Of a stretch of 32,000 nt of DNA, positions 4,541 through 21,998 are shown piece after piece. The stretch is from Candidatus Saccharimonadota bacterium (lineage in GTDB: Bacteria > Patescibacteriota > Saccharimonadia > Saccharimonadales > Saccharimonadaceae). The first letter of the stretch is position 1; each line of letters starts with the position of its first letter. Under the pieces are notes generated by a model, which was not told the origin of the DNA, ran no database searches, and worked only from the letters and a program-made list of their open reading frames with translations. The DNA lies in assembly GCA_002421785.1 (NCBI GenBank), contig DIRZ01000002.1, forward strand, positions 60,001 to 92,000, read 5' to 3'. The translations under genes were made by a program, and so were the position numbers.

Positions 4541-4598
4541 TTATCCACAGATTTTGCACTCACTTCATTACCCCCCCGTAATTATCACCCAAACACTG

Positions 4599-4627
4599 TT
4601 GACAGGCTATACCGCTCATGGTATCAT
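4599..4627 (+). promoter_or_regulatory. Sigma70-type promoter for ORF 4664-5875
   Basis: TTGACA (4599-4604), a 17-nt spacer, then TGG-TATCAT (extended -10, hexamer 4622-4627). The predicted 5' UTR is about 30 nt, A-rich, with no clear Shine-Dalgarno. Confidence 0.6.
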
Positions 4628-4663
4628 CTCTAGTAGAAACCTTAAAAATAAAAAATATCCACC

Positions 4664-5875
4664 ATGAAAATACAAAAAACCACCACACTATTTCGCGCCC
4701 TAGGCGTGTTCTTGCTTGTCGCAGTTGTTGCCGCACAAGCACTATTACAAACCCCATCTGCTAATGCGGAGCAAATCGTCATACGGTCACTTAAGCTCGA
4801 AGCAGCCGACGTGAACCCGGGTGGTTTAAATGGTGGTTCACGCCCGAGTGGTGCGCTTCCAAACGTTAACTCAACTGCAAACCACAGCTTTACGTTCACA
4901 CTCCCCTCAGTCACCGCAACACCAGTGGGGTCGCTACTTTTCGAGTACTGCACCACTGCCGCGGACGTGGGTGGCGCGACCTGCGTGGCGCCAACTGGGC
5001 TGGATACGACTGCTGCGACTCTTGGCGCTACCACTGGTATTACTGGTCTTTCGATTGCCAATATCAGTACAAACTCTTATCGCCTTACCCGCTCCCCTGG
5101 TGCCGCATCAGCTGCGCCTGCAAATACCGTTGTAACTGCAACCGTTAAGGGCATTACTAACCCGTCAGTCCTCGGTACCTTCTATGTGCGAATCTCCAGC
5201 TACAACAGTCTCGACAACACCGGTGGTGCGATTGACCGTGGCACGGTAGCCGCCAGCACCGCCGACCCAATCGAACTGAGCGGGGTGATGCCCGAGTCGC
5301 TCGTCTTCTGTACTGGTGCGACCGTCGGTCTGACTACCGGACTTCCTGACTGCTCAACCGCAACCGATGGAATCATTGAATTCAACAAACTCTTCTCGCC
5401 AACCGATACAGCGTACTCACTCTCACAAATGGCAGCAAGCACCAACGCTGGTGCAGGCTATGTCATCACTGTCAACGGCCCAACACTTACCTCGGGTGGT
5501 AATAGTATCGCCGGCATGGCAACACCCGGAGTCAGCGCACGAGGAACCGCACAGTTCGGCATGAACCTCGTGGCTAACCCAGCTACGGTATCAACAGGTA
5601 TCGATGTCGTCACCGCACCGTTTACGATAGCAAGTGCAGACGTCGCACCTATCTCGAATGCTAGCAACTACCGTGGCCAGCCAGTGACCGACTACGGCAC
5701 CGCCAGCACCTTCAAGTTCCTCACAGGTGACCCTGTCGCAGCCAGCGACAACGGCGGCGCAGGCGCAACTGACGCACAGATTTACACTGTCAGCTACATC
5801 GCCAACGTACCAGGTAGCCAGCCTGCCGGTATCTATGCGACCACCCTCACGTACATCTGTACACCTACGTTCTAG
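4664..5875 (+). CDS. Secreted beta-rich surface protein, large paralog A (WxL-like C-terminal domain)
   Basis: 403 aa with a signal peptide ending ANA|EQIV. It shares long blocks with ORF 5978-7120 (LSGVMPESLVFCTGA...PDCSTAT.G.IEFN.LFSP.DTA...MAASTNA..GY.ITVNGPTL, .FGMNL.AN, and an identical C-terminus TLTYICTPTF). Confidence 0.85.
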   Translation: MKIQKTTTLFRALGVFLLVAVVAAQALLQTPSANAEQIVIRSLKLEAADVNPGGLNGGSRPSGALPNVNSTANHSFTFTLPSVTATPVGSLLFEYCTTAADVGGATCVAPTGLDTTAATLGATTGITGLSIANISTNSYRLTRSPGAASAAPANTVVTATVKGITNPSVLGTFYVRISSYNSLDNTGGAIDRGTVAASTADPIELSGVMPESLVFCTGATVGLTTGLPDCSTATDGIIEFNKLFSPTDTAYSLSQMAASTNAGAGYVITVNGPTLTSGGNSIAGMATPGVSARGTAQFGMNLVANPATVSTGIDVVTAPFTIASADVAPISNASNYRGQPVTDYGTASTFKFLTGDPVAASDNGGAGATDAQIYTVSYIANVPGSQPAGIYATTLTYICTPTF

Positions 5876-5897
5876 TTTACTCTTTCCCGGTTTCTCC

Positions 5898-5927
5898 GAA
5901 CTGCCGCTGCAACAACAGCGGTAGTTC
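5898..5927 (+). terminator. 12-bp stem-loop between paralog A and paralog B (partial terminator or mRNA-stabilising hairpin)
   Basis: GAACTGCCGCTG-caacaa-CAGCGGTAGTTC forms 12 pairs including one G.U, with a 6-nt loop. It starts 23 nt after the stop of ORF 4664-5875. The sequence that follows (GTGTATATTATGG) is U-containing but is not a clean U-tract. Confidence 0.4.
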
Positions 5928-5940
5928 GTGTATATTATGG

Positions 5941-5970
5941 TTGACCCGGCTGAAGTGCTTATGATACACT
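5941..5970 (+). promoter_or_regulatory. Promoter for ORF 5978-7120, predicting a leaderless mRNA
   Basis: TTGACC (5941-5946), an 18-nt spacer, then TGA-TACACT (hexamer 5965-5970). The ATG at 5978 is 7 nt after the -10. Confidence 0.5.
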
Positions 5971-5977
5971 GCTCTAT

Positions 5978-7120
5978 ATGAGAAGAGTGAGGGGTGTTGC
6001 ATACTTTTTGAGCGTATTATTAGTAGCGGTAAGCGTTACGGCAGTTTTCAGCGGGCCTGACGCATCAGCCGCCCAAATTACCGCTCGCAGCCTCACGCTC
6101 GTCGGCGTCACGGGTGTTGGTGGCTCGATGCCGGGCGGCAACGTCAACCATAAGTTTACCTTTACTATCCCTACCCTCGGTACTGCACTCGGTTCTGTCA
6201 AGTTTGAATATTGTACGATTGCTACAAAAGATGCTTGTGTTACACCGACCGGAATGGATGCGTCTATTATTACCGGGCTGAGCGACACCGGTTCCGGCGT
6301 GACTGGTTGGACCGTCCAGGCTGGCTCAACAGCCAACACGGTTATTGTCAGGCGCGCCGCAGCGAGCAACCCGGCGAGCGGCAATCTTGTTATTCAGCTC
6401 AACAACATCAAGAACACGACCGACGTCAACAAAACGTTTTTCGTGCGCATCACCACGCACAGTAGCCTTGACGGTACTGGCGCAATCGTGGACAGCGGAT
6501 CAGTTGCAGCCAGCACCGCCAACCCTATCCAACTAAGCGGTATCATGCCTGAAAGCCTTATCTTTTGTACGGGCGCTGACATCACCGTAAACGCCGGTGT
6601 GCCTGACTGTTCTACTGCAACTAGTGGCGTCATCGAATTTAACCAACTATTCTCGCCACAAGACACCGCGACGGCAGTTTCTAAAATGGCGGCGAGCACC
6701 AACGCATTTTCTGGGTATGCCATCACCGTCAATGGGCCAACGCTCGCTTCTGGGTCATCATCGATTCCCGCTATGGCATCAGGCGCTGCCGATGCCCCAA
6801 TTGCACGAACACGTGGTATCAGCGAATTTGGAATGAACCTTGCGGCCAACACCGTGGCGACCTCTACAACCCCAGTCGGTGCAGCGGTGAACCCTGTTCC
6901 AGACGGGCTCAACCTCCGCGGCCAAGCAGCGTCTGACTACTCAGTCGCCGATCAGTTTAAGTACTCAAACGGCGACATTGTTGCAGCCAGCGATAACGGT
7001 GGCCTTGGTCCAACAAATTCGCAACTCTACACGGTATCCTACATTGTCGACGTCGCCGGTAACTTGCTTGCTGGTACCTATAGCACCACACTAACCTATA
7101 TCTGTACTCCTACATTCTAG
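5978..7120 (+). CDS. Secreted beta-rich surface protein, large paralog B (WxL-like C-terminal domain)
   Basis: 380 aa with a signal peptide ending ASA|AQIT. It is roughly half identical by eye to ORF 4664-5875 across its full length and has the same C-terminal TLTYICTPTF. Confidence 0.85.
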   Translation: MRRVRGVAYFLSVLLVAVSVTAVFSGPDASAAQITARSLTLVGVTGVGGSMPGGNVNHKFTFTIPTLGTALGSVKFEYCTIATKDACVTPTGMDASIITGLSDTGSGVTGWTVQAGSTANTVIVRRAAASNPASGNLVIQLNNIKNTTDVNKTFFVRITTHSSLDGTGAIVDSGSVAASTANPIQLSGIMPESLIFCTGADITVNAGVPDCSTATSGVIEFNQLFSPQDTATAVSKMAASTNAFSGYAITVNGPTLASGSSSIPAMASGAADAPIARTRGISEFGMNLAANTVATSTTPVGAAVNPVPDGLNLRGQAASDYSVADQFKYSNGDIVAASDNGGLGPTNSQLYTVSYIVDVAGNLLAGTYSTTLTYICTPTF

Positions 7121-7123
7121 TTT

Positions 7124-8122
7124 ATGACTTTACACAAATTACCCACCATACTCGTATTATCAACACTCATTGCATCGGCCGTTGTCGCGCCGCTAACTGC
7201 CGCAGTGACAGCAACGCCCACCAACGACCAAGGCTTAGCGCTCGAAATTGCACCACCTGTCGTTAACTTCGCCGTCGAACCTGGCGAGACAATTGACTCG
7301 GAGATCGCAATTCGCGACGTATCAACGTCACCGCTTCTCGTCACAAGCGAGATCAATGACTTTACCGCCAGCGGCGATGAAGACGGTAACCCGAAAGTAC
7401 TCACTGACGCCACCGAAAAAAGCCCCTACTCCATCATCGATTGGGTAAGCCCATTCGAGCAGATGGCATTGGAGCCAAAACAGATCAAGAAGCTCGCCCT
7501 AAAGATTAAGGTTCCAGCCAACGCCGCACCTGGCGGCTACTACGGAGTGATCCGATTCACTGCAACGCCTCCCGATGGTGAAACAACCAGCGTGTCGCTC
7601 GCGCCAAGCCTAGGAGCCCTTGTCATGATCCGCGTTAAGGGCCAGGCAACTGAAAAACTAACTGTCAAAGAATTTTACATGACACAAAACGGCAAGAAAG
7701 GCACGTTCTTTGAAGGTATTCCTTTTGAGTTCGTTCAGCGACTCGAAAATGAAGGCAACGTGTACGAGCAGCCAACGGGACGCATCCTCATCAAAGACAT
7801 GTTCGGCAAGCCCGTAGCCAATGTCAACGTCAACGCAGACAGTCGTAACGTCCTTCCAGGAAGTATCCGTAAATTTACTCAGGAATTTGATAGTAAAGCG
7901 CTCGGCAATATAGGCCTATTCGGTAAGTACACAGCCGAGCTAAGCCTTAACTACGGAGATAAATTAACGACCGGGTCCAGCCTAACCTTCTGGGTTATTC
8001 CTTGGAAGCTCATCGCACTGGTGATTATAGGCCTTATCGCAGCCGTCGTTGGCATCCGTTACGCCTTCAAACGATACACTGATCGCATCGTTGGCAAGTC
8101 ACGTGGCTCACGCCGTCGCTAG
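7124..8122 (+). CDS. DUF916/DUF3324-like (WxL-interacting-protein / CscA-like) cell-surface protein with a C-terminal TM anchor
   Basis: 332 aa, starting 3 nt after the previous stop. It has a signal peptide, then LEIAPPVVNFAVEPGETIDSEIAIRDVSTSPLLVTSEINDF...DGNPKV, then W....MALEPKQIKKLALKIKVPANAAPGGYYGVIRF. The second domain reads LENEGNVYEQPTGRILIKD...VLPGSIRKF...GKYTAELSLNY. It ends with a C-terminal TM helix plus a basic tail (KSRGSRRR). This is the architecture I remember for the Firmicute DUF916+DUF3324 proteins of WxL loci. Confidence 0.75.
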   Translation: MTLHKLPTILVLSTLIASAVVAPLTAAVTATPTNDQGLALEIAPPVVNFAVEPGETIDSEIAIRDVSTSPLLVTSEINDFTASGDEDGNPKVLTDATEKSPYSIIDWVSPFEQMALEPKQIKKLALKIKVPANAAPGGYYGVIRFTATPPDGETTSVSLAPSLGALVMIRVKGQATEKLTVKEFYMTQNGKKGTFFEGIPFEFVQRLENEGNVYEQPTGRILIKDMFGKPVANVNVNADSRNVLPGSIRKFTQEFDSKALGNIGLFGKYTAELSLNYGDKLTTGSSLTFWVIPWKLIALVIIGLIAAVVGIRYAFKRYTDRIVGKSRGSRRR

Positions 8123-8135
8123 ATACACCTAATTA

Positions 8136-8144
8136 TGCTATAAT
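8136..8144 (+). promoter_or_regulatory. Extended -10 promoter for ORF 8151-9104, predicting a leaderless mRNA
   Basis: TGC-TATAAT (hexamer 8139-8144) is followed 6 nt later by ATG 8151. There is no good -35, which is consistent with an extended -10 promoter. Confidence 0.5.
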
Positions 8145-8150
8145 CAGCTT

Positions 8151-9104
8151 ATGCTAAAGCACTTGAAGCTGAGCCACCACGCCAATACCGGCAAAGTGCG
8201 GCCCCACGAACATACGTCATACCTTCCACTTGCCTTGGTATTGCTTGTCGTCGGTTTTATACTCACGACCTTCACGACATTTGCCTGGGAACGGCCGGGC
8301 CCAGCTTCCGAATCTGTCGGCCTATCGGGAGTTATGCCTGGTAGTCCCCCTACTGCTGCAGCGGTAATCAAAACGCCTACTACAGGCCAGCGCTTCACCC
8401 AAACCCCTATCACCGTGGCAGGTACCTGCCCCAAGGACACGCTAGTCGAGCTATTCAAGAATGATATTTTTGCCGGATCTGGTGTCTGTACCAGCGAGCA
8501 AACCTTTTCGTTTCAAATCGATCTCCTCATTGGCCAGAACCAACTTATCGCGCGCGTGTATGACGCCCTAAACCAGCAGGGGCCTGACTCTAACATTGTG
8601 ACGGTATTCTACGATGCCTCAAACGCCCAGGGCAGCCCGCTTACATCGCTTAATTTCGGCGGGCCACAGCTCATTATTAACACAGATGCGGTATTCCGTG
8701 GTGCCTTCCCCAACAAAGAGATGTCCATACCCGTTGATATCATCGGTGGTCGCGCGCCGTACGCGGTGAATATCCAGTGGGGTGACAGTACCAACAAAGT
8801 AATATCACGACCCGACAACGCCACCTTCCGCGAATCACACACCTACACCAAGGGCGGTACTTACCAGCTGGCAATTCAGGCAACCGACGCCGACGGCCGC
8901 GTCGCCTTTCTCACAGTAGCAAGTATCGTGAATGGTCAGCCCGACCCAGCTGTCGCCGCTATCGCCGACAACAAGGCAACCACTAACCTATTGCTCGCAC
9001 TGTGGCCGCTCTACGCCGCTACCTTTGCGGTTGTCGTCAGTTTCTGGATGGGCGAATGGCGCGAAAAACGCCTGCTCATCAAGCACGGTGTACTAGCAGC
9101 CTAA
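8151..9104 (+). CDS. Membrane protein with an extracytoplasmic Ig-like domain plus a PKD-like domain, flanked by N- and C-terminal TM helices
   Basis: 317 aa. N-terminal TM helix YLPLALVLLVVGFILTTFTTFAW. PKD-like signature IQWGDSTN...SHTYTKGGTYQLAIQATDADGRVAF. C-terminal TM helix LLLALWPLYAATFAVVVSFWMG. Confidence 0.8.
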   Translation: MLKHLKLSHHANTGKVRPHEHTSYLPLALVLLVVGFILTTFTTFAWERPGPASESVGLSGVMPGSPPTAAAVIKTPTTGQRFTQTPITVAGTCPKDTLVELFKNDIFAGSGVCTSEQTFSFQIDLLIGQNQLIARVYDALNQQGPDSNIVTVFYDASNAQGSPLTSLNFGGPQLIINTDAVFRGAFPNKEMSIPVDIIGGRAPYAVNIQWGDSTNKVISRPDNATFRESHTYTKGGTYQLAIQATDADGRVAFLTVASIVNGQPDPAVAAIADNKATTNLLLALWPLYAATFAVVVSFWMGEWREKRLLIKHGVLAA

Positions 9105-9400: not shown

Positions 9401-12400
9401 ATGCGCGTGCTCTTCGTAAGTACCCTCCTTGTGGGTGTATTTATGGTTGTTCTGTCTGTGGCTCCCAAAGCACACGCCGCAACCAACCAACAAATGAATT
9501 TTCAAGGACGCCTCCTCAATGCACAGGGCGCCGTTGTTCCTGATGGCTTTTATAACATTCAGTTCAAGATATACCAGGATGGTACCGGCACTACTGCTGG
9601 CAACCCCGGGGGAACACTTGAGTGGACAGAAGATTGGCTGAACAGTGGCGGCAAGGGTGTGCAGGTGGTGAACGGGTATATGTCGGTGCAGCTTGGAAGC
9701 ATCAATCCTTTTGCGAGCCAAATCGACTGGAATTCTGACACCTTGTGGCTCAGCATGAACATTGGTAATACCAATGTCAGCTGTACGCCGTTTACGAGTT
9801 GTGCCCCTGATGGCGAAATGGTGCCTATGAAGCGCCTTTCTTCTGTTGCCTACGCGATGAATGCCACTATGCTCAACGGCAAGACCGCTGACAACTTCAT
9901 TCAAAATCAAAATAGCGCCGTTCAAGTAGCCGCCAATATCTGGATAGGCGGCACTACTCGTGCTGATACGGCAGTCCTCTCCCCTACTCTCGACACTGCT
10001 GATGCGACCACCCTCAGCATAGGCGCAACAAATGCAGTGAATGTCAGCATAGGCAAGTCGGCGGGCTCAATATCTCTTCATGCAAGTACGACAACTGTCG
10101 GTACCTCGGGTAGCGCGGCGACTATTAAGGGTGCCACACAAACCGCTGCTAACACTACAGGCGACACACTCACCATTAAGGGCTCAACGGGCAATGGAGC
10201 CGGTGCTGGCGGTCAGCTAGTCATCCAAGGGGGCGATGGCGGCGTAACGAACGGCGCAAATGGTGGTAGCCTATACCTCAGTGGCGGCACTGGCACGGGA
10301 AGTGGTGTCGATGGACTTGTCATCATGACAACCCCCACCTTTTCAACGACTACAAATGATGTAAATTGCTACACCGGAGGGTCCCTTGTGGCATCGAACT
10401 GTACTATTAGTTCAACCTCTATCAATAGTTCATCGGCAGTCATTATTGGCTTCTCTAATGGGGAAAGGACCGCGACACTACCGGATCCTACGATTCTCAC
10501 CGCAGGTCGCGTTATATACATCACTGCCGCAAACGGGTCTAGTGATTTCACGCTAAGCGCTAATGGCGGCGGATTGGGTAACCAGATTGCTATGCGCCAA
10601 AACTCATCTGCTACCATGATTTGGAATGGTAATGACTGGACCGCAGCTGGCGCATCGAGCTCCACGACCCTACAAAGCGCCTACGATAATACCCTGCAAA
10701 GTGCCGGCGGCGCAGAATTGATTGTCAGTAAAACCTCAACGACCAATGGATTAACGATTCGCGACAGCTCTACCAATCCCGTAAATGGAACGGTTATGAG
10801 CATCCAGACGTCGTCAGCTGCCGGGCTGCTATCTGTAAACGGGAATGTAGCCGAATACTCGACCAACAGCGGCGCCGAGGTAGCTGGAGTGAGTGCGACT
10901 ACATTCCCAGCAAACACCTGGCTCCCGATCAGTGGTGCGACAGTCGCTCGCCACACCACTGCTGGAGACTACATTGCAACCGGAAAAGGCTCGACATCGG
11001 TTTTGACAAGCACAACCGCAGGAAGTGGCGTTCGTAACCGCTTGAGCACCGCATTAGTACCAAACATGACATACAACGTTTCATTTGGAACACGACTCTT
11101 AGCCGGGAGCTTCAGTGATCTCCAAGTTTACTATTCAGCAGACGGCTCAGCAGCCTCCGCTCCTTGCACAACAACTAAATCACCCGTGACAAGCATTTGG
11201 ACAAAGATAAACTGTACCTTCGTGGCACCGGCATCTGGAATAGTGGCAGATAACTCTATACTCATCAGACAAGCCAGCTCCGGGACGGCACGCACATTCT
11301 ATGTAGATAATCTCAGCGTCACCGTTGCTGCTGACTTTAATTATGCAACCGATGGAAGTGCTAATGACGGTGATAACTTTACTTCCAACTGGTCATTCGT
11401 CAATGCAACCTCTGGGGCGGGCTCGATTACGCGTAGCACAACCGATGGAGAGGATGCCAGTGATAGCGCACAGGTCACACTAACCACCGGTGCGGCTAAT
11501 GCCGGTATTCGCAACCGCCTTTCCGTCAATCCGCTCCCATCCACACTGTACCGCATGACCGCCTACGCAAAGGTAACCTCAGGAACCTTTACTAATTTCA
11601 AAATTCGTTATTCACCAGATGGCAGCACCGGCTCATCGGGGAACTATACTGATTGTGTCGACTATAATACTCGCACGCTCACGACAACGACATGGACAAA
11701 GATTACGTGTTTCGTTCAAACAAGCAGTACGCCAGCCACAAACCCCCATGCCTACTTTGTTGAAGAGTCAGCTCAAGCGCGCACGTTCCGCGTGGACGCC
11801 TTTACCATGACTCTCACGACCAATACCGCGTCAAACGTACAAATAGGCGGTGGCGAAAATGGTGGCCCGACTACTCTCTTAACACTGGATAAGGCTGCTT
11901 CTGCTCCAATCGCAATCAATAACGATGCGCTCCTCGGTTCGATGTACTATGACACGACACTCGGCAAGCTGCAATGCTATGAGGCAGATGGATGGGGCGC
12001 CTGCGGCTCTAGCCCTGACACCATCGTCACGATTTCTCCAGAATTCACGAATGCAGTACTGCATGGAACGGGTATCGGAACCATGGTTTCAGACCTCTGC
12101 TCAGACACTCTCAATATCAATGATGGATCATCGGGACAGCCAAACGTCTGTGGGACAAATGAGACATTTAACTTTTATAGGTGGACTTCTCCGCAGCCAA
12201 GTGCACAAACATACGGCGTATACGTTACGTATCAGCTGCCGGCAAGCTTCAAGAGCTTCGAGTCTGGCTCCACATCGATAATCGGAAGAACCGACAGCGC
12301 AAACTCTACTATGGAGTATCAGGTGTTTCGCGATGACTCGTCTACTGGCCTCACTACTTGTGGACCGGCCGTCCTGGTGTCCTCTGGAGTTGTGTCGTCA

Positions 12401-12550
12401 TGGCAGCCTGGCCTAGCCACAGGTACAGCCGATCCATCAACTTGCGGATTCGTACCGGGCAACAGTATCGTTTTTCGAATAAATGTAACAGCAAGTCAAA
12501 ATGCAAACGCGTATATTGGCAACCTGAACTTCAAGTTTAGCAACAAATAG
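9401..12550 (+). CDS. Large secreted fibre/adhesin-like protein with two tandem CBM-like (carbohydrate-binding-module-like) domains
   Basis: The ORF is open from TTG 9386. I prefer ATG 9401 (MRVLFVSTLLVGVFMVVLSVAPKAHA|ATNQ, a classic signal peptide). The N-terminal module reads MNFQGRLLNAQGAVVPDGFYNIQFKIYQDG. A Gly/Thr/Ala-rich beta-helix-like stretch follows. Two modules of about 160 aa end in FYVDNLSVT (about 11298-11324) and FRVDAFTMT (about 11787-11813). The C-terminal domain contains LGSMYYDTTLGKLQCYEADGWGACG. Confidence 0.85.
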   Translation: MRVLFVSTLLVGVFMVVLSVAPKAHAATNQQMNFQGRLLNAQGAVVPDGFYNIQFKIYQDGTGTTAGNPGGTLEWTEDWLNSGGKGVQVVNGYMSVQLGSINPFASQIDWNSDTLWLSMNIGNTNVSCTPFTSCAPDGEMVPMKRLSSVAYAMNATMLNGKTADNFIQNQNSAVQVAANIWIGGTTRADTAVLSPTLDTADATTLSIGATNAVNVSIGKSAGSISLHASTTTVGTSGSAATIKGATQTAANTTGDTLTIKGSTGNGAGAGGQLVIQGGDGGVTNGANGGSLYLSGGTGTGSGVDGLVIMTTPTFSTTTNDVNCYTGGSLVASNCTISSTSINSSSAVIIGFSNGERTATLPDPTILTAGRVIYITAANGSSDFTLSANGGGLGNQIAMRQNSSATMIWNGNDWTAAGASSSTTLQSAYDNTLQSAGGAELIVSKTSTTNGLTIRDSSTNPVNGTVMSIQTSSAAGLLSVNGNVAEYSTNSGAEVAGVSATTFPANTWLPISGATVARHTTAGDYIATGKGSTSVLTSTTAGSGVRNRLSTALVPNMTYNVSFGTRLLAGSFSDLQVYYSADGSAASAPCTTTKSPVTSIWTKINCTFVAPASGIVADNSILIRQASSGTARTFYVDNLSVTVAADFNYATDGSANDGDNFTSNWSFVNATSGAGSITRSTTDGEDASDSAQVTLTTGAANAGIRNRLSVNPLPSTLYRMTAYAKVTSGTFTNFKIRYSPDGSTGSSGNYTDCVDYNTRTLTTTTWTKITCFVQTSSTPATNPHAYFVEESAQARTFRVDAFTMTLTTNTASNVQIGGGENGGPTTLLTLDKAASAPIAINNDALLGSMYYDTTLGKLQCYEADGWGACGSSPDTIVTISPEFTNAVLHGTGIGTMVSDLCSDTLNINDGSSGQPNVCGTNETFNFYRWTSPQPSAQTYGVYVTYQLPASFKSFESGSTSIIGRTDSANSTMEYQVFRDDSSTGLTTCGPAVLVSSGVVSSWQPGLATGTADPSTCGFVPGNSIVFRINVTASQNANAYIGNLNFKFSNK

Positions 12551-12565
12551 CCACTACAAATACTG

Positions 12566-12571
12566 TATAAT
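12566..12571 (+). promoter_or_regulatory. -10 box for the giant gene, predicting a leaderless mRNA
   Basis: TATAAT (12566-12571) is followed 7 nt later by ATG 12579. The gap to the previous gene is only 28 nt. Confidence 0.45.
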
Positions 12572-12578
12572 TAAGGTT

Positions 12579-15500
12579 ATGCTACATGTGCGAAGCATTT
12601 TGAGACGTGTGCGTCACTTTGTTCTAGTATCCCCCGTGCGTAGGTTCGCCCTACTGGGTGCTATTTCTGTGCTAATATTAGCCGGCGCCGCACTAGTTAT
12701 TTCTCCACTTCTTTCTAAAAAACCCTATGACCTAGGGCGATCAGCAAAACTACTGACTAATCCGAATAGCCGCATAGCCGGCCAGCTCACGTATGATAAA
12801 GGGTCTTTATCGTTTAACTATAAACAACCCGAACAGGTTAATGGCGAGGCAAATAAAGACATTGAGGCTTCTTTTAATGAGAATATTAGCCAAGGCTTTA
12901 GCGTCAAAGATACAGTCAACGACGTAAGCTTTGGTATGAAGGCTAAAGACAACCACATGGTTGGTCGTCAAGATGAAAACCGCGTTGTCTATCCATTATC
13001 AACTGGGGACGGTTGGACAATATATACAATACAGAAAACCGGTATTAAGGAAGACATTATCCTGACCGAATCGAAACAAGACACACGAGAATTCTCGTAC
13101 GAGCTTGTCTTGAATGATGGGCTTGAGCCAAGAATTGAAAAGGACGGTGGACTTGGTGTGTACGGAAACACGCTTCTTAGTGGCGATATTACCGCCACGT
13201 CAAACGAAGATGTGGAGCTACTAAAAAAAGCTCGACAAAGTGCCGATAAAAATACCTTGCTGTTCAAGATACCCGCCCCCATAGTTCTCGAATCCGGAGG
13301 AAATGAGTCTGAGTACGCCCGTGCGAAGTTTAGCCTATCTGACAACATTCTTACCGTCACGACCACTGGGCTATCTAGAGCGAACTACCCGTTATCTATT
13401 GACCCTAGTATCTATGTAACCAGTGCCCGTGAGTTTATGGCTGGAAATAACGAAACGAACATCGACTTTAACGTAGATGAGCAACTTATCCAAAAATCAC
13501 CGACCACTGGCGCGCGATTCGACCAATGGGATGATACACTATCCCTCCCTGTTGCAACCTCTGCCAATGGTGTAGCAGCTGCCGGTGGATATGTATATTC
13601 GATTGGCGGACGATCATTCCTAGGGCAAGCATTTAATACCCAGGGCGCCGAAACTTTTGTCGTCCCTACCGGTGTTACGAGTATTTCTGTAAAAGTTTGG
13701 GGTGCAGGTGGTGGTGGTGGTGGTGGTGGTGGTTCTACCGGTACTGGAGGCAACGGAGCTGGCGGTGGGTATGTGACAGCCAATGTACCCGTAACTCCAG
13801 GGGAGACGCTCAGTGTCTATGTTGGCGGTGGTGGAAATGGTGGCAATAACGTATCAAACACTGGTAGCGGTGGCGGTGGTGGTGGCTACACGAGTATTTA
13901 TCGTGGGAGCACGCCGCTGGTCATCGCCGCTGGCGGAGGAGGAGGGGGGGGCTCTCGCATCTCGAGGAATGGAGCCGATGGGGGCGCCGGGGGCGGTACA
14001 ACCGGAATTATTGGGGCCACGGTATACAACAACAACGGTGACGGTGGTGGTCCGGGTACACCGACTGCTGGTGGTGGTGGTGGACAAGGTGGAAACAACT
14101 CGGGCGGTGCCGGTTCGTCACTCACGGGAGGCCTCGGCGCCGATGGCCGTAGTGCCACAACTGGCGCTGATGGTGGTGGTGGCTTTGGTGGACTAGCAAG
14201 CGGTGGTGCCGGTGGGCTCGCAAACGTTAACACAACTCGTGCTGCTGGTGGTGGTGGTGGCGCTGGGTACTTTGGTGGTGGTGGTGGTGGCGCCACCTCA
14301 AGTACAACCAACTCATCAGGTGGTGGTGGTGGTGGCGGCTCTAGCTATACGGCAGGCGGCCTGAGTGGAGTAGCCAATAACGCTGGTAGCGGCGTTAACC
14401 CGGGTAATGCTGCTGACCCTGCTCGCAATGGAGCGGGTCAAGGTGGCGGTGGTGGTGCGGGAGGTCAGGGTGGCACAAACGGCGCAAACGGCGCGGTATT
14501 TATTGCCTACGGCTCAGGCACTGAAGTGTCAAAAAATGTCAGCTGGGCAGAGTTCAACTCCGCAACGGGTGAAGTTCAGAGCGCTAACCCCGGGTCAGGT
14601 ACTTGTGCCGGGTGGTGTTCTTCTAACGACTACTCGCTTCCTTCAGAGCGCAGTAACTTCTCACTCGTCGCGTATAGCGGCTACCTCTACGCGATTGGTG
14701 GTGTCGATGCTTCGGGTACCCGAACCAACACTGTCTACATCGCGAAGATTGGCGCCAACGGTGAGCCTCGCCTATGGCACCCCACAGATACCAATCCAGA
14801 CAACTGGGTTTACTGGTACCAAGACGCCAACCTCACATCGGTCCGCTCAGATTTTACCGCAACCGCCTACAATAATCGGCTCTACCTTATCGGTGGCCGC
14901 AGCTCATCTGGTCCGGTCTCTACTGTTGAAATAGCCGATATCACCCCAACAGGGAAATTAGGTGCCTGGTCAGCATCTACTGCGCTCCCTTCTAACGTTT
15001 ATGGTCATGGTGCAGCTATTTATAATGATAGAATTTATGTGCTCGGCGGCTCTAATAGCATAGGAGGCGCTCCTTCGAACACTGTTCGCTACAACAAAAT
15101 TAACACAGATGGAACTCTCAATAATTGGGTCCAAACTACCAATCTGCCGCAAGGACGATTCACCGGCGGAGGTACCATGGCAGCTATCTGGGGGGCCTAT
15201 ATCTACGTCAGTAGTGGGTGTAGTACTGTCAATGGTAGTGGATATTGCACTGGAGTACATTCCAATATTCAACTGGCAAGTATCAATGCCGACGGGAGCC
15301 TTGACGCCTGGAATACTGTCGGTACAGCGGTTGACGAACGACTTGGCGGCAACTTACTCTCCTGGCGTGGTCATTTATACCGAGTGGGCGGGTGCAGCTC
15401 TCAAAACGCCTCTACTGGCGATTGCGGTGCTGCCACTCTTGACTTAATTCGTGTTGGTAAAATAAACCGCGACGGCGATGCTTCAACGGTGGGTGAATCG

Positions 15501-18500
15501 TTTGCTAGCGGCAGTGGAGACTGTACAGGGGGTAACCCATCGCAGTGTAACCTGCCCGGCACAACATATGTCGGTAATATGCTGACAAACAGCTTTATTT
15601 ACAACGGGCACCTCTACATTACCGGCGGATGCACGAACAATGCCTGTAGTTCGACAAGCAACGACGTCGTCTACGCCGCCATCGATACCAATGGCTCTAT
15701 GACTCGCCCTGCAACCTGTAACGGCTCATATGTGGGTGGCTCATGGTGTTATCTCGCCAATGTCCTCCCCAGTGGAGTAGCGGCATCGAGCCCCGTTACA
15801 TTTGGCGGATACGTATACTTAGTAGGAGGACTCACAGGGAGCGCTAATACAAACACCCTGTTGCGAGCCCAACTCAATAGCGACGGCTCGATAGGCGCAT
15901 GGTTATCACAGTCTATGACGGGGGTAGGCGCAGCCAACGTTTCCTACCTATACGCGTACGCCAGAGCAAATCCATCCGCTGTCGCGACTAACCCGGGGAA
16001 CCTGTTCATATTTGGAGGATGCACCAGTTCGAGTTCAGCCGGATGCACTGCGTATACTCAAAATGTCTCTAAGTGTAGCATCGCCAGCGATGGCTCCGTC
16101 AATGGCTGTTCGACCAGTGGACAACTCCAGGTCGGTACAGTACCTGGTGCAACTGGTGTAGGTATCGGTATTATGAGTGGAACAGTGTACGCCAACTATA
16201 TTTACCTCATAGGCGGTGTGGCGCCTGGGCTTGTCGATATGAAAACAGTTCGGTATGCTCGGTTCGACAATAACAATAATGTCGTCGCCGCTAGTGGATC
16301 CAGCTGGACAGAATCACCAAACCAAATGGAAATCGGACGTAGGCGCACCGCAGCTTTCGGATACAACGGCTACATTTACGTCGCTGGCGGGTTCGAAGCA
16401 GGCGGTGGCGGCGTTATCGCAGACATCGAGTTTATTAAAGTCAACGTGAGCGATGGAAGCCTCGGCGACGCGACCGATGGCTTTACGACATCTGAAGTGA
16501 AGATTAACCAACGATGGGGATTGACTCTAGCCGTCTCAAACTCATATGCCTATGTCATAGGGGGCTGTACGATTGGCGATAGCCCTGGAGCATGTACTAC
16601 GCGCACGGATACTATCCAGACGTTCCAGATCTATAACAACGTTAGTGGCGCGCCAGCCGGCTACAGCAATGCCGCAAATACCTATGCCACTAACCCTAAC
16701 CGTCTTGGTGCTACTAGCACTGTGCTAAACGGTCGTCTTTACACCGCAGGAGGTTGCGTCAGCACCACAGACTGTACCAATGCGGTCAACACCGTTTCGT
16801 ATGCACCTATCGACGTCAACGGCAATCTCGGTACGTGGTCAAATACTACAGCCAACCTGCCAGCTGATCGCGCATGGGGCAAGATACTTAACGCTGGCGG
16901 TTCGCTATATTATATTGGTGGCCAAGGTGACGCGGCATCCGATCGTCGCGCCGAAGTATACTATGCAACTCCAGCGGGTAGTGGCAACGTGACAACCTGG
17001 GGAACTGCCTCTAACGGATTACCGAACGCCCGTACAAAATTTGGTGCAGCCAGCTGGAACAATCGCTTATATGTCGTTGCCGGTGAAGGCACGGCCGGGA
17101 CGTGCACAAGCAACCTATGCAGCGACGTCTATGTTAGTCCACAACTAAACAATGGCGGAAACATCACCAGTGCGTGGTCAACAAGCGGTCCGGGTGTCAA
17201 TACCGGTCGCAGTGGTGCTACAGTCACAGCCTACGCGAACAATCTTTATATGTTTGGGGGCTTTGCAGGATCGGGCAATTATCATTCTGATAGTCAATAC
17301 GCACAGATCAACCCATCTACAGGGCTCGTTGGTAGCTGGACGTATTCTGCAAGCCTTCCTAAGCCAATCGGGTTCGCCAATTCGTATGCAGCCAATGGGT
17401 ATATGTACCTCGTCGGGGGGCGAACGTCGGAAGGATCCTGTGAACCGACGACTATGGTTGCTCCAATCAGCGCAAACACCACTATCGCCACTGGAAATAG
17501 CCCAACAGGCATCGGCGCGTGGTACGAAGCCAACCAGAAATATTCCAATTCACGCTACGGAGCTAGCGCTGCCTACTATGATGGAAAAGCCTACTTAGCT
17601 GGTGGTGCCTGTAACGCTGCAACCGCACCAACTGTCGCATCGGCCACAACCACAAATACCGGCGCAGGATTTGCTTCAGACAGCACCACTCATAATGTAG
17701 CCATGCCTGGCACAACAGCGGCTGGCGACTTACTCTTGATGTTCTTTAGCTACGACAGCAACTCAAACCCAACGGTTACCGATCCAGATGGAGCTGGTGG
17801 CTGGACAGAGCTTGCATCAGTTAACAGTGCCACTAACGGCGCTCATGGTTCCGTCTGGGCCAAAGTAGCGACTGGGAGCGACGGCGCGACGGTCAACTTT
17901 GCAACGTCTAATTCACAAAGTGCCGCTGCGCGAGTCTACCGTATACTGGCAGGTGAATGGCACGGTGACCTAACTGGTGTCGAGGTAGCCAGCGGTACTG
18001 GATCGACTACCGCAAGCCCCGATCCACCGACACTCACGCCATCATGGGGTAAAACTGATAACCTATGGTTTGCCTATGCAGCCGGCGGCACACATACTGG
18101 CGTCTCGAGCTATCCAACCAATTATACTAGTGGCGCACACGCAAGTGGCAACACCGGCACCAATGGCGCCAGCGTGGCAACAGCTTATCGCGCGAACAAT
18201 ACGGCGAGTGAGGACCCCGATGCTTTCACCATGGCGAGCAGCCAAACCAGTGTCGCTTTTACGGTTGCAGTCCGCCCAGCTCCTCCTGTGCTCACCTACG
18301 CTGGTGCCAACGAGGTTCAGCAAACTGCGCTGCTCTCGCAACCGCAAATCGCACGCTACTCACTCCTAATGGATACCGACACCGATGTCTATCCCAATGC
18401 ATGGCTCATGAACGGCATCGACAACTCGGTTGGCGCAAACTGGCAATTAAAGTATCGTTCAATGACAAATCCTACCACCTATTGTGTCTCGCCAGCTATG

Positions 18501-18791
18501 ACCACATGGGGGCAGGAAACCGTTTTTGGTAACGTCACCCTTGGGCTACCTGGGGTATACACGCCTAAAAATGGGGCTGGCGCAAACACCGATTGTGCTC
18601 GCTACTTCTTCTTTAACGTCTCGGTAGACAGCTCGCAGGCGTATGGCTATCCAGACGACGTCACGCGCGGACCTACGATTGACAGCCTTTCGTTACAGTT
18701 CACCGGTGATCCATCAAAACGATTAATGCATGGGCGAACATTTACTGGGGGCTTGCAGCAGCCCATTGATACACCATACTATGGACAATAA
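12579..18791 (+). CDS. Giant (2070 aa) N-terminally membrane-anchored surface protein: glycine-rich (ALK/LTK-type Gly_rich-like) domain plus about 18 Kelch-like propeller blades plus C-terminal beta-rich domains
   Basis: TM helix FALLGAISVLILAGAALVISPLL. The Gly-rich module reads FVVPTGVTSISVKVWGAGGGGGGGGGS...GGGYVTANVPVTPGETLSVYVGGGGNGG...PLVIAAGGGGGGG. About 18 repeats have the form (Y/F)xxxxY(I/V/L)xGG, for example YSGYLYAIGG, YNNRLYLIGG, YNDRIYVLGG and NGYMYLVGG. Confidence 0.9.
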   Translation: MLHVRSILRRVRHFVLVSPVRRFALLGAISVLILAGAALVISPLLSKKPYDLGRSAKLLTNPNSRIAGQLTYDKGSLSFNYKQPEQVNGEANKDIEASFNENISQGFSVKDTVNDVSFGMKAKDNHMVGRQDENRVVYPLSTGDGWTIYTIQKTGIKEDIILTESKQDTREFSYELVLNDGLEPRIEKDGGLGVYGNTLLSGDITATSNEDVELLKKARQSADKNTLLFKIPAPIVLESGGNESEYARAKFSLSDNILTVTTTGLSRANYPLSIDPSIYVTSAREFMAGNNETNIDFNVDEQLIQKSPTTGARFDQWDDTLSLPVATSANGVAAAGGYVYSIGGRSFLGQAFNTQGAETFVVPTGVTSISVKVWGAGGGGGGGGGSTGTGGNGAGGGYVTANVPVTPGETLSVYVGGGGNGGNNVSNTGSGGGGGGYTSIYRGSTPLVIAAGGGGGGGSRISRNGADGGAGGGTTGIIGATVYNNNGDGGGPGTPTAGGGGGQGGNNSGGAGSSLTGGLGADGRSATTGADGGGGFGGLASGGAGGLANVNTTRAAGGGGGAGYFGGGGGGATSSTTNSSGGGGGGGSSYTAGGLSGVANNAGSGVNPGNAADPARNGAGQGGGGGAGGQGGTNGANGAVFIAYGSGTEVSKNVSWAEFNSATGEVQSANPGSGTCAGWCSSNDYSLPSERSNFSLVAYSGYLYAIGGVDASGTRTNTVYIAKIGANGEPRLWHPTDTNPDNWVYWYQDANLTSVRSDFTATAYNNRLYLIGGRSSSGPVSTVEIADITPTGKLGAWSASTALPSNVYGHGAAIYNDRIYVLGGSNSIGGAPSNTVRYNKINTDGTLNNWVQTTNLPQGRFTGGGTMAAIWGAYIYVSSGCSTVNGSGYCTGVHSNIQLASINADGSLDAWNTVGTAVDERLGGNLLSWRGHLYRVGGCSSQNASTGDCGAATLDLIRVGKINRDGDASTVGESFASGSGDCTGGNPSQCNLPGTTYVGNMLTNSFIYNGHLYITGGCTNNACSSTSNDVVYAAIDTNGSMTRPATCNGSYVGGSWCYLANVLPSGVAASSPVTFGGYVYLVGGLTGSANTNTLLRAQLNSDGSIGAWLSQSMTGVGAANVSYLYAYARANPSAVATNPGNLFIFGGCTSSSSAGCTAYTQNVSKCSIASDGSVNGCSTSGQLQVGTVPGATGVGIGIMSGTVYANYIYLIGGVAPGLVDMKTVRYARFDNNNNVVAASGSSWTESPNQMEIGRRRTAAFGYNGYIYVAGGFEAGGGGVIADIEFIKVNVSDGSLGDATDGFTTSEVKINQRWGLTLAVSNSYAYVIGGCTIGDSPGACTTRTDTIQTFQIYNNVSGAPAGYSNAANTYATNPNRLGATSTVLNGRLYTAGGCVSTTDCTNAVNTVSYAPIDVNGNLGTWSNTTANLPADRAWGKILNAGGSLYYIGGQGDAASDRRAEVYYATPAGSGNVTTWGTASNGLPNARTKFGAASWNNRLYVVAGEGTAGTCTSNLCSDVYVSPQLNNGGNITSAWSTSGPGVNTGRSGATVTAYANNLYMFGGFAGSGNYHSDSQYAQINPSTGLVGSWTYSASLPKPIGFANSYAANGYMYLVGGRTSEGSCEPTTMVAPISANTTIATGNSPTGIGAWYEANQKYSNSRYGASAAYYDGKAYLAGGACNAATAPTVASATTTNTGAGFASDSTTHNVAMPGTTAAGDLLLMFFSYDSNSNPTVTDPDGAGGWTELASVNSATNGAHGSVWAKVATGSDGATVNFATSNSQSAAARVYRILAGEWHGDLTGVEVASGTGSTTASPDPPTLTPSWGKTDNLWFAYAAGGTHTGVSSYPTNYTSGAHASGNTGTNGASVATAYRANNTASEDPDAFTMASSQTSVAFTVAVRPAPPVLTYAGANEVQQTALLSQPQIARYSLLMDTDTDVYPNAWLMNGIDNSVGANWQLKYRSMTNPTTYCVSPAMTTWGQETVFGNVTLGLPGVYTPKNGAGANTDCARYFFFNVSVDSSQAYGYPDDVTRGPTIDSLSLQFTGDPSKRLMHGRTFTGGLQQPIDTPYYGQ
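13707..13733 (+). repeat. (GGT)9 in-frame trinucleotide microsatellite encoding Gly9
   Basis: Nine perfect GGT codons in the giant gene's reading frame. Shorter (GGT)4-5 tracts lie near 14070-14084, 14242-14256, 14275-14289 and 14319-14333. Confidence 0.9.
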
Positions 18792-19408
18792 TGACTAATA
18801 TTCTACAAAAAACCATGCGTCAGATACGGAAGAACGCGGCGACAGGCACCACCCGACCTGCCCTGAGCCGCAAACAACGCTTGAAAAAGTATAAATTCCC
18901 CCTAGTCCTCGTAGGCATCGCGATCCTGTTGGTTTTCGGCTTTCATATCAAAAACCAGATAGATCAAACATCCACAAAACAGCCAACAGCTAGCACAGAT
19001 ACCGCCGATGAGCCCCCAAAGCTACAAAAAGGCACACCCGATTATGCCACCGTAGCGCCCAAAGGAGTTTCAATTAATAGCCTCGGCGGGTGGACGCGCG
19101 TTAGTCCTCCCGACAGAAACCCCGTGTTTGCCTACGTCCAGACGCTCGGTGACTCCACTATTAGTGTCAGCCAGCAACCTCTTCCTGAAAGCCTACAGAT
19201 AGATTCTGAAGAAGCACTCAGCGCTTTAGCCAAAGACTTTCGTGCTAATGAGATGATTACGGCAGGTGACACACCAGCCTACATCGAGACAAAAAATAAC
19301 GGTGCTCAGTCTGTATTATTCATAAAAAACGGTCTACTGATATTAATCAAATCTTCAAGAAGTGTAGCCAATACTACATGGGTAGAATATATCATTTCAT
19401 TAGAGTAA
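18791..19408 (+). CDS. N-terminally anchored exported protein, translationally coupled to the giant gene
   Basis: 205 aa. Its ATG overlaps the TAA of the giant gene by 1 nt (TAATG). It has a basic N-terminus and one TM helix (FPLVLVGIAILLVFGF). Confidence 0.7.
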   Translation: MTNILQKTMRQIRKNAATGTTRPALSRKQRLKKYKFPLVLVGIAILLVFGFHIKNQIDQTSTKQPTASTDTADEPPKLQKGTPDYATVAPKGVSINSLGGWTRVSPPDRNPVFAYVQTLGDSTISVSQQPLPESLQIDSEEALSALAKDFRANEMITAGDTPAYIETKNNGAQSVLFIKNGLLILIKSSRSVANTTWVEYIISLE

Positions 19409-21707: not shown

Positions 21708-21998
21708 ATGGATGCAGCAACTCTACAATCACTACTCAACGAGACCTCCGGATCGGGCGGTACTAGTTCACTCTTTGACATCAATGCCCTCATCGCGCCA
21801 CTGATGCCATATATCATCATGCTGACGGTCGTATCGTTCGTCATTACCATCCTCTATTTTGTGAGTGTGGTTCAAAAATGGCGCGCAAATGCAGCTATCA
21901 TTGAAATTAGGGATATCCTGCGTGACATGCGCGCCCAGGCCCAAACAGAGCCGCCCGCGGTTACTTCTGTAAATGACGCTCAGGTGAGCGCGACTTAG
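21708..21998 (+). CDS. Small membrane protein (hypothetical)
   Basis: 96 aa with one strong TM helix (LMPYIIMLTVVSFVITILYFVSVV). Its 3' end overlaps the convergent kinase gene by 38 nt. Confidence 0.5.
   Translation: MDAATLQSLLNETSGSGGTSSLFDINALIAPLMPYIIMLTVVSFVITILYFVSVVQKWRANAAIIEIRDILRDMRAQAQTEPPAVTSVNDAQVSAT

Follow-up and report, generated by a model that had tools for sequence, protein, structure and literature searches.

A giant, predicted membrane-anchored Kelch protein with whole domains in its blade loops, encoded beside the Pam pilus genes of a Saccharimonadota bacterium, is a candidate adhesin

The subject of this study is a single, very long gene of Candidatus Saccharimonadota bacterium (assembly GCA_002421785.1), found in a window of 32,000 nucleotides (nt) of contig DIRZ01000002.1 (positions 60,001 to 92,000 of the forward strand); all coordinates below refer to this window. 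The gene encodes a protein of 2070 amino acids (aa), referred to here as the giant, in which we recognised 18 Kelch blades and whole domains placed in the loops of some of them, and it lies beside the genes of a Pam pilus. An earlier note, made from the sequence alone, had proposed a membrane-anchored protein with Kelch-like blades and a candidate adhesin. The features of the gene and of its product are as follows, with the evidence in brackets.

12564..12571, plus strand: extended -10-like element TGTATAAT, 7 nt upstream of the ATG of the giant (read directly).
12579..18791, plus strand: open reading frame (ORF) of the giant, 2070 aa and stop (frame open across 2070 codons).
12579..12713, plus strand: putative signal anchor, a basic cytoplasmic N-terminus followed by a hydrophobic helix at aa 23-45 (hydropathy).
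12753..13415, plus strand: N-terminal beta-rich domain, aa 59-279 (AlphaFold2 (AF2) model, predicted local distance difference test (pLDDT) about 90).
13557..13616, plus strand: first half of blade 1, GG doublet at aa 343-344 (positions 5-20 of a blade hidden Markov model (HMM), on aa 331-346).
13623..14510, plus strand: glycine-rich domain, aa ~349-644, in the blade 1 loop that follows the GG doublet (post-GG loop) (PF21722, AF2, Foldseek).
14511..14648, plus strand: second half of blade 1, with the pair C676-x3-C680 (positions 20-48 of the blade HMM, on aa 631-683).
14649..17552, plus strand: blades 2-17, aa 691-1658, with cysteine-paired loops in blades 5, 6, 7, 9, 12, 13 and 15 (blade table, blade HMM, Pfam).
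17553..17630, plus strand: first half of blade 18, GG at aa 1675-1676, C1678 (blade table, blade HMM).
17631..18308, plus strand: optional 226-aa beta-sandwich cassette ('GDLLLMFF' domain), aa 1685-1910, in the post-GG loop of blade 18 (alignment, AF2).
18309..18722, plus strand: family-specific C-terminal domain, aa 1911-2048, with the pair C1969/C2006 (conservation, AF2).
18723..18788, plus strand: near-invariant C-terminal tail of 22 residues, KRLMHGRTFTGGLQQPIDTPYYGQ (alignment columns; pLDDT below 50 in isolation).

Four Pfam Kelch families scored above their cut-offs in the giant, i.e., PF24681 (106.9 bits; cut-off 50), PF01344 (72.7; 20.1), PF13418 (39.6; 21.6) and PF13964 (35.7; 25.3); the Kelch_3 and Kelch_4 motifs are generic. 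Aligned on the GG doublets, all 18 blades fall in register and share the pattern R-x-x-h-x-h-x-x-x-G-x-h-Y-h-h-G-G ... G-x-h-x-x-W ... L-P, and every blade motif quoted in the earlier note is present. The blade HMM was built from blades 2-17, and the strong scores of these 16 blades (E 1e-15 to 1e-20) are expected by construction; the HMM also matches blade 18 and each half of blade 1, weakly but independently. A phmmer search of PDB sequences matched the giant to Kelch propeller proteins (E 5e-8 to 1e-3), several of which, such as the designed SAKe6, are six-bladed by name. Kelch profiles, which had been proposed as a check, thus gave significant matches, as did the PDB sequence search, and the Kelch-like blades of the earlier note were borne out. 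Kelch motifs, the GG doublet and the W/LP/R blade signature are common to the giant and to Keap1, the KLHL proteins, LZTR1 and SAKe6. In contrast to these proteins, the giant has 18 blades in one chain, a predicted extracellular location, cysteine-paired loops and inserted domains, and it lacks BTB/BACK domains.

A division of the 18 blades into three six-bladed propellers (18 = 3 x 6) is only suggested: occupancy of the cysteine loops repeats roughly every six blades, and the blade-to-blade similarity with period 6 is weak (permutation p = 0.053). An N-terminal half-blade at aa 295-330 that would close the last blade was considered and dropped, because the blade HMM gave no support for it.

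The layout of the earlier note, an ectodomain of about 300 aa followed by repeats, held for the repeats; however, blade 1 (from about residue 331) is split from the rest by a glycine-rich domain of about 300 residues. Since the blade HMM matches blade 1 in two pieces, aa 331-346 and aa 631-683, this domain is placed after the GG doublet of the blade. Its glycine content is 26-44%. When the region was scanned alone, PF21722 (Gly_rich_2) was matched at aa ~354-565 with 33.6 bits against a cut-off of 24.3; the match was not reported in the scan of the whole protein. Among homologs the glycine-rich region is nearly constant in length (335-357 residues) and many single glycines are invariant, which speaks for a folded domain and against a linker. 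The AF2 model, made from a 40-sequence alignment, has pLDDT mostly 85-96, with a dip to 56-73 near aa 525-554, and contains almost no helix or strand; low secondary structure at such pLDDT is the pattern that a bundle of polyproline-II (PPII)-type glycine helices would be expected to give. PDB sequence matches of this region to the (GGGGS) linkers of scFv16 were discarded as spurious. It should be noted that the domain is missing from some relatives: one giant (L074; contig JAQGGU010000092.1, 4942-9795) has no glycine-rich domain at all and is otherwise intact, a natural variant, and in two representatives the sole glycine-rich stretch lies near residue 1550. A further homolog (P0104) also lacks the blade 1 domain and is otherwise intact; like L074, it is a useful comparison for the role of the domain.

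In Foldseek searches of the PDB, the best matches of the glycine-rich domain were tail-tip chains of phage Bxb1 (9d93_Qa/Qb; E 1.2e-6, 25% identity, about 230 residues), followed by about 20 glycine-rich ligand-binding domains of ALK/LTK (E 1.6e-5 to 6e-4) and the fibre of cyanophage Pam3 (E 1.3e-3). Among PHROGs, a weak match to a 'tail fiber assembly' family was found (phrog_863, 8.8e-5). The Bxb1 protein gp33 ('tail wing brush') itself scores 45.4 bits on PF21722; since BLASTP gave no significant alignment of the glycine-rich domain with gp33, the link between the two is one of Pfam profile and fold. Thus, gp33 (PDB 9D93) and the domain of the giant are members of the same Pfam family and both would lie on the outside, in the phage on a host-contacting structure; gp33 is a free tail subunit, whereas the domain of the giant is an insertion in the Kelch blade loop of a cellular membrane protein. 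The TG/GRD domain of ALK/LTK (PDB 7NX3, 7NX1, 7N00, 7LRZ) matches over about 340-380 columns with a template modelling (TM) score relative to the target of 0.35-0.48 and E about 1e-5, in a comparison that is valid at the level of fold only; it is a glycine-rich bundle of PPII-type helices, as the domain of the giant would be, and it serves extracellular ligand binding. However, ALK and LTK are animal receptor tyrosine kinases with a cytoplasmic kinase domain, and the identity is 17-23%. In a paper of 2026, gp33 is listed together with the Pam3 fibre, gp38 of phage S16 and ALK as a glycine-rich PPII-bundle protein. The likeness to S16 gp38 is functional only, in that a glycine-rich helical bundle serves there as a receptor-binding fibre tip, according to the literature; gp38 was not among the Foldseek matches of the domain.

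The second inserted piece lies in blade 18. The earlier note had described two further beta-rich domains at the C-terminus; both are beta-rich, but the first is absent from about three quarters of the homologs. This first domain, the cassette, is gapped in about 77% of homologs, the common class of about 1850 residues being without it, and a cassette of 220-229 residues is present in 16 of 120 listed homologs. It comes after the GG-A-C of blade 18, and the sequence behind it, VLTYAGANEV, corresponds in the alignment to TLTYASP of relatives without a cassette; this junction therefore assigns the cassette to the loop type that also accommodates the glycine-rich domain. AF2 predicts a beta-sandwich with pLDDT mostly 82-96. 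The predicted fold has 30 matches in BFVD at E <= 1e-3, down to 3e-6, mostly to uncharacterised Caudovirales proteins of 200-250 residues; others are to minor tail proteins from Mycobacterium phages and to phosphodiesterases of tail type from phages of Microbacterium and Clavibacter. A sequence search with the cassette alone returned 82 proteins, mostly of 215-370 residues and 30-46% identical over about 90% of the length, with E down to 1.7e-38. Among them are stand-alone proteins of about 220 residues with 35-46% identity to the cassette. All three contigs with cassette homologs that were examined carry phage genes (P22-type portal, terminase, capsid, SU10 adaptor or integrase). A tblastn search of the cassette against 50,697 GenBank phage records gave no match. 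On two of the three phage-type contigs, L086 (8254-10193) and L088 (10001-14041), a P22-type portal gene follows the cassette homolog a few genes further downstream; L088 also has a terminase gene, and in L086 the homolog comes directly after a pectate-lyase-like gene.

Large indels among the relatives were mapped on the blades and the inserted pieces were scanned separately, and further insertions were found: (i) in the blade 14 loop, a PA14 domain (P0053, P0119 and similar proteins; 47 bits, cut-off 24); (ii) in the blade 15 loop, a second Gly_rich_2 domain (P0069, P0116, P0041 and P0093; 28.3 bits, cut-off 24.3); (iii) in the blade 18 loop, a second Gly_rich_2 domain (P0013, P0027, P0088 and P0039; 24.1 bits, just under the cut-off). 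PA14 is a domain of known adhesins; it is carried in a blade loop by these relatives, whereas the giant of the window has none. Taken together, the alignments strongly support the view that the post-GG blade loop acts as an insertion hot-spot for whole accessory domains across the relatives of the giant. In Kelch propellers the loop after the GG doublet (the B-C loop) projects from the ligand-binding face.

The giant contains 26 cysteines, all of them beyond residue 675, and 11 of the 13 consecutive pairs are no more than 12 residues apart, a value that was reached by 2 of 100,000 random placements. The giant was aligned by MAFFT with 120 homologs of 55-99% identity. All 121 sequences share 20 of the 26 cysteines, C1621 and C1678 among them; two sequences have other residues at both C1393 and C1399, and 1509/1514 is the sole variable pair. 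Loop length between paired cysteines is essentially fixed (for instance, the CxGWC motif of C676/C680 has the same length in 121 of 121 sequences), and the interiors of the loops show moderate conservation without hypervariability. The post-GG loops of blades 5, 6, 7, 9, 12, 13 and 15 contain short C-x(4-9)-C motifs. All seven cysteine-pair loops quoted in the earlier note are thus present, and the pairs, as it had supposed, are almost invariant. The pairs are putative disulfides, for which their invariance, the joint replacement of C1393 and C1399 and the fixed loop lengths speak indirectly; disulfide formation in this envelope is plausible because electron cryo-microscopy of Pam pilins shows two potential disulphide sites. 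The loops were also considered as N-glycosylation sites, and this was rejected for lack of enrichment (26 sequons versus 31 +/- 5 in shuffles).

The N-terminus of the giant consists of a basic stretch and a strongly hydrophobic segment of 23 residues, FALLGAISVLILAGAALVISPLL, with a Kyte-Doolittle mean of 2.88 over 19 residues from residue 23, as computed on the near-identical locus of P0001 (GCA_032229745.1, contig JAVTWT010000008.1), the top homolog at 99% identity. Most of 59 homologs examined likewise begin with some 15-80 aa of basic character, after which comes a segment of similar hydrophobicity; a few score low or have an uncertain start call. Because the basic stretch precedes the hydrophobic segment in most homologs, an uncleaved signal anchor is favoured over a cleaved signal peptide. 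These sequence features strongly support the prediction, also made in the earlier note, that the giant is held in the cytoplasmic membrane by its N-terminal helix with the remainder extracellular. The invariant cysteine pairs also favour a surface location.

This single-pass topology, the resemblance to the ALK/LTK ligand-binding domain and the phage relatives of the modules would each fit a receptor or sensor with an ALK-like ligand-binding domain, or else a decoy that presents phage-type modules to phages at the surface. We consider both very improbable indeed. The cytoplasmic part would comprise about 15-80 poorly conserved basic residues without a recognisable output domain, and no signalling gene is conserved nearby: a CHASE-domain histidine kinase (21961-23754, minus strand) is encoded about 3 kb downstream of the cluster, but such a kinase is beside the giant only in one near-identical locus (L001), and L002, the single divergent relative with a sufficiently long gene list, lacks it. 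The gene for PRPP synthetase, which lies between the giant and the kinase, was matched in 4 of 82 loci. Nothing directly supports a decoy.

Between the anchor and blade 1 lies the N-terminal domain, which matched no Pfam or PHROG family and gave weak Foldseek matches to GH92 mannosidases (E 6e-3). This resemblance to part of the GH92 structures bears on another alternative, namely that the giant is a carbohydrate-active enzyme whose Kelch propellers act, like the sialic-acid mutarotase NanM or galactose oxidase, on host glycans. One homolog was automatically named 'N-acetylneuraminic acid mutarotase' by the Joint Genome Institute (JGI), several have a precomputed match to PF24996 (NANM), and two distant relatives gave NANM matches of 23.8 and 40.6 bits. 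However, both of these scores are below the 45-bit cut-off, the giant has no NANM match even at E <= 1, the 'galactose oxidase' names in Pfam denote generic Kelch motifs only, and tandem propellers (three are suggested) with binding-type inserts differ from the known layout of such enzymes. We therefore regard an enzymatic role as very unlikely.

The constant core of the family comprises the anchor, the N-terminal domain, about 990 residues of blades and the C-terminal domain, the last of which is the most conserved segment of the giant (75-85% identity to the query among homologs). The C-terminal domain was modelled by AF2 as a beta-sandwich with pLDDT 60-86, and when the C-terminal model was compared to the PDB by Foldseek, nothing was found below E 0.18 for either the cassette or the C-terminal domain. 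An exhaustive HMMER search with aa 1911-2070 against 1.84 billion representatives returned 100 proteins, in which the match is always at the extreme C-terminus, and the six long proteins sharing this domain that were scanned are all multi-Kelch. The tail KRLMHGRTFTGGLQQPIDTPYYGQ is near-invariant, yet in isolation its pLDDT is below 50; we therefore read it as a putative docking element for a conserved partner. The C-terminus ends in ...TGGLQQPIDTPYYGQ without a hydrophobic segment, and neither a sortase (LPXTG)-type nor another C-terminal sorting signal was found there.

A word-indexed search returned at least 480 homologs of 1770-2210 residues, and those with a name are all called 'hypothetical protein' and come from Candidatus Saccharibacteria or Saccharimonadales. 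A relative is carried by at least 166 genomes in a scan of one genome per GTDB species; 80 of these were listed, and nearly all are titled Saccharibacteria, Saccharimonadales or Patescibacteria (two have other labels of metagenome-assembled genomes), Ca. Saccharimonas aalborgensis and Microsaccharimonas being included. The family is one of environmental Saccharibacteria (class Saccharimonadia). Intactness of the ORF in relatives, a point that the earlier note wanted checked, was confirmed: the frame is open over at least 1848 codons in 59 loci. A pseudogene was considered for two loci and rejected, the sole apparent breaks (L003 and L038) coinciding with runs of N in glycine-rich coding DNA. 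In both loci the runs are of 100-200 N and fall exactly within GGN-rich DNA; metagenome assemblies evidently tend to break in such DNA, and gene calls of the family may thus often be split or truncated in databases. Two loci with the family-specific C-terminal domain occur in each of three genomes (L042/L053 in CAZOOQ01, L058/L062 in JARIHB01 and L006/L068 in CAZIEB01), so some species appear to carry two paralogous giants. The literature search returned no paper linking Saccharibacteria with Kelch proteins, and the tables of a transposon sequencing (Tn-seq) study of oral strains have no entry with 'kelch', 'Gly_rich' or 'mutarotase'.

The genes around the giant supply the context for its role. 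Those of the pilus locus and the two immediate neighbours are listed below.

3791..9104, plus strand: complete Pam pilus operon, with PamT, two pilins, a chaperone-like 332-aa protein and PamR (NCBIfam).
3791-4540, plus strand: PamT (NF058579, 255.7 bits; cut-off 240).
4664-5875, plus strand: pilin 1, with Pam pilin C-terminal domain (NF058581, 135 bits; cut-off 55).
5978-7120, plus strand: pilin 2, with Pam pilin C-terminal domain (NF058581, 123 bits; cut-off 55).
8151-9104, plus strand: PamR (NF058578, 348 bits; cut-off 300).
9401..12550, plus strand: secreted fibre-like protein of 1049/1054 aa (signal peptide; CBM_4_9, 26.5 bits, cut-off 25.9).
18791..19408, plus strand: membrane-anchored protein of 205 aa, the ATG of which overlaps the stop of the giant in TAATG (N-terminal hydrophobic helix).

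The Pam pilus was described in 2026 in Ca. Mycosynbacter amalyticus, a parasite of Gordonia amarae, as a filament that is specific to the candidate phyla radiation (CPR) and assembled by donor-strand exchange, from pilins with potential disulphide sites and an O-linked sugar (bioRxiv 10.64898/2026.03.03.709456). According to the same preprint, a 'tail fibre-like protein' consistently co-localises with the Pam operon, and no dedicated trans-envelope assembly machinery was found for the pilus. The 1054-residue protein upstream of the giant is probably this 'tail fibre-like protein'. Its match to Bdello_MAT_N (20.5 bits against 60) is weak and far below the cut-off; thus, the resemblance to the mosaic adhesive trimer (MAT) fibres of Bdellovibrio lies in this neighbour and not in the giant. 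For MAT, a bacterium living on other bacteria is known to use swappable, phage-like binding modules. The gene call of L001 for the 1054-residue protein begins five codons past the TTG listed by the ORF tool. None of the Pam operon products is recognised by Pfam, the chaperone-like protein has a C-terminal helix and no NCBIfam match, and neither pilin had a matching chain in the PDB copy that was searched. PHROGs gave no match for the 1054-residue and 205-residue proteins, nor for the cassette and the C-terminal domain of the giant. A surface cluster of WxL/Csc type had been considered for the upstream genes after a sub-threshold WxLIP_PGBD match, and was dropped once NCBIfam gave the Pam names.

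The gene order in the window is ATP synthase gamma and beta, a divergent gene of 343 residues, PamT, two pilins, the chaperone-like protein, PamR, the 1054-residue protein, the giant and the 205-residue protein. This whole order of eleven genes recurs in L002, where the giant is 61% identical, as well as in the near-identical L001. A homolog of the 205-residue protein, which the earlier note had correctly seen as a small anchored protein overlapping the giant, is immediately downstream in 77 of 82 loci. Upstream, the 1054-residue gene was found in 63 of the 82, i.e., in those with a flank long enough, and PamR and the chaperone-like gene in 29 and 20, roughly those with a flank reaching past the 1054-residue gene. 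Co-orientation and adjacency of the giant to the pam genes are thus conserved. The earlier account of the protein stood in its blades and was incomplete in three respects, having overlooked the PF21722 insert, the optional cassette with homologs on phage-type contigs, and the Pam context.

The giant resembles the Pam system in position (immediately adjacent, co-oriented and syntenic) and in potential disulphides, which the Pam pilins also have; it differs from the pilins in that no pilin-type C-terminal domain is detectable by sequence, and it is not described in the Pam preprint. Another comparison is with PilY1 and the Saccharibacteria PilX2 of type IV pili, which are likewise propeller proteins genetically tied to a pilus and are implicated in host binding. 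These, however, have a single seven-bladed propeller of RCC1 or PilY1 type and a pilin-like N-terminus, and belong to type IV pili, whereas the giant is a Kelch protein, predicted to be membrane-anchored, beside a donor-strand-exchange pilus.

We propose that the giant is a host- or ligand-binding adhesin, or host-recognition protein, that acts alongside the Pam pilus, and we put the probability of this reading at roughly 0.55. The candidacy as an adhesin, already voiced in the earlier note, gains from the binding-type insert domains and the Pam context, and it is a candidacy still. A binding role is suggested by the Pfam family that the glycine-rich domain shares with Bxb1 gp33 and by the PA14 domain in the equivalent loop of relatives, as well as by the fold matches of that domain to the Bxb1 tail tip, ALK/LTK and the Pam3 fibre, the glycine-rich bundle of S16 gp38 and the phage relatives of the cassette. 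In the proposed mechanism, the propellers would form a rigid, disulfide-stabilised platform carrying interchangeable ligand-binding modules on one face; these modules would bind components of the envelope of a host or prey cell; and the invariant C-terminal domain and tail would dock to a partner encoded nearby, i.e., the fibre-like 1054-residue protein, the anchored 205-residue protein or the Pam pilus. The giant would then be a short-range adhesin or host-recognition device beside the long-range Pam filaments.

Several points weigh against this proposal. The localisation of the giant, the formation of disulfides and the binding are all predicted from sequence and models, and the partition into propellers and the placement of the inserts on one face rest on general knowledge of Kelch proteins, not on a model. 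The wing genes of Bxb1 look dispensable, as a related phage is without them and a gp30 deletion is viable; thus, the phage analogy is no proof of receptor binding. The text of the Pam preprint contains none of the words Kelch, propeller or glycine (bioRxiv 10.64898/2026.03.03.709456). The giant has no NCBIfam match at E <= 1 and so fits no Pam family model, and a distant, glycine-poor relative with the same C-terminal domain, the sole one checked with its flanks, is not beside Pam genes. In addition, the propeller core is conserved at 55-85% identity with moderate loop entropy, more than would be expected of a surface diversifying under pressure from hosts; a conserved structural partner and a variable host ligand are therefore equally likely.

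The last point leads to a structural or assembly role, in which the giant would be an envelope scaffold, a pilus anchor or a platform for the Pam pilus or the fibre, and would bind proteins or wall of its own cell. Such a role would account for the C-terminal domain and tail being the most conserved parts, for the high conservation of the propeller core across the class and for the tight synteny with the Pam genes and the genes of the 1054-residue and 205-residue proteins; the lack of a trans-envelope assembly machinery in the Pam preprint also leaves room for one. Conversely, it is hard to see why a purely internal scaffold should have PA14, glycine-rich and cassette modules swapped from lineage to lineage, and the missing match to Pam family models and the relative away from Pam genes count against this role too. 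On balance, we consider it unlikely, although it is the main alternative to the adhesin reading.

A bolder version of the adhesin reading, which we put forward tentatively and regard as possible but doubtful, is that the giant is the cell's own 'receptor-binding protein': a fixed triple-propeller chassis beside Pam, in which modules captured from phages are swapped between lineages, in and out of blade loops and along with PA14, changing the bacterial host to which the cell can attach. The captured modules would be the glycine-rich bundle, of the type of Bxb1 gp33, and the beta-sandwich that recurs in proteins from contigs with a P22-type portal gene. In a sub-variant, the invariant tail would plug into a Pam subunit or the neighbouring fibre, coupling recognition physically to the pilus. 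If this were true, it would be a cellular counterpart of the module exchange in phage tail fibres, and would imply that genes pass between phages and an epibiotic bacterium.

In the choice and retention of hosts by ultrasmall epibiotic CPR bacteria, only type IV pili and, very recently, Pam pili have so far been implicated. The adhesin reading would make the giant a concrete and testable candidate for host-range determination, the variable parts of which belong to domain types with which phages and adhesins bind cell surfaces. Its gene is among the largest in genomes of about 1 Mb, is nameless in the databases consulted and is present in at least 166 species-level genomes. Kelch, Gly_rich_2 and PA14 domains, beta-sandwiches and giant bacterial adhesins are familiar. 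What is new is the combination of tandem extracellular Kelch propellers (three of them being suggested) with domains grafted at one loop position of different blades, the modules in common with phage proteins, and the fixed partnership with the Pam pilus locus. The grafting of whole domains into the same loop of different blades is an unusual solution in terms of protein engineering, and the sharing of modules suggests an exchange of binding modules between phages and CPR bacteria.

The start of the giant gene differs among genomes. In the window, the element TGTATAAT was not listed by the promoter scan because it is without a -35 partner; a leaderless start at 12579, as proposed in the earlier note, is plausible in this genome. 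In relatives, the gene abuts the upstream stop or has an extended -10 (TGnTAnAAT) about 25-35 nt upstream; thus, a leaderless start is not family-wide. Around pilin 1, a promoter-like site (within 4599-4627, plus strand; TTGACA-17-TATCAT with TG, 11 of 12 positions) precedes the gene, and a terminator-like hairpin (within 5897-5928, plus strand; 13-bp stem with 8 GC pairs), the strongest in the region, follows it. The pilin 1 gene (4664-5875) looks like a separate high-expression unit for a major pilin.

Downstream of the giant and the 205-residue gene, two proteins of 175 aa (19447-19974, minus strand) and 189 aa (19977-20546, minus strand) are encoded, with a hydrophobic helix each; no family was assigned to either, and of 82 loci, 57 and 45, respectively, have a homolog of them downstream of the giant. 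The divergent 343-aa protein (2671-3702, minus strand) has one hydrophobic helix, a repetitive beta-type region and a weak bactofilin-like match (E 0.03), and the place of its gene between ATP synthase and PamT is kept in L002. Short ORFs on both strands within the giant gene, e.g., 14407-14934 (plus) and 13898-14311 (minus), are assumed to be by-products of GGN-rich coding DNA. The GC skew is positive (+0.09 to +0.14) solely over the glycine-rich coding DNA (13001-15000), against a negative background, which we ascribe to the composition of GGN codons and not to a replication signal.

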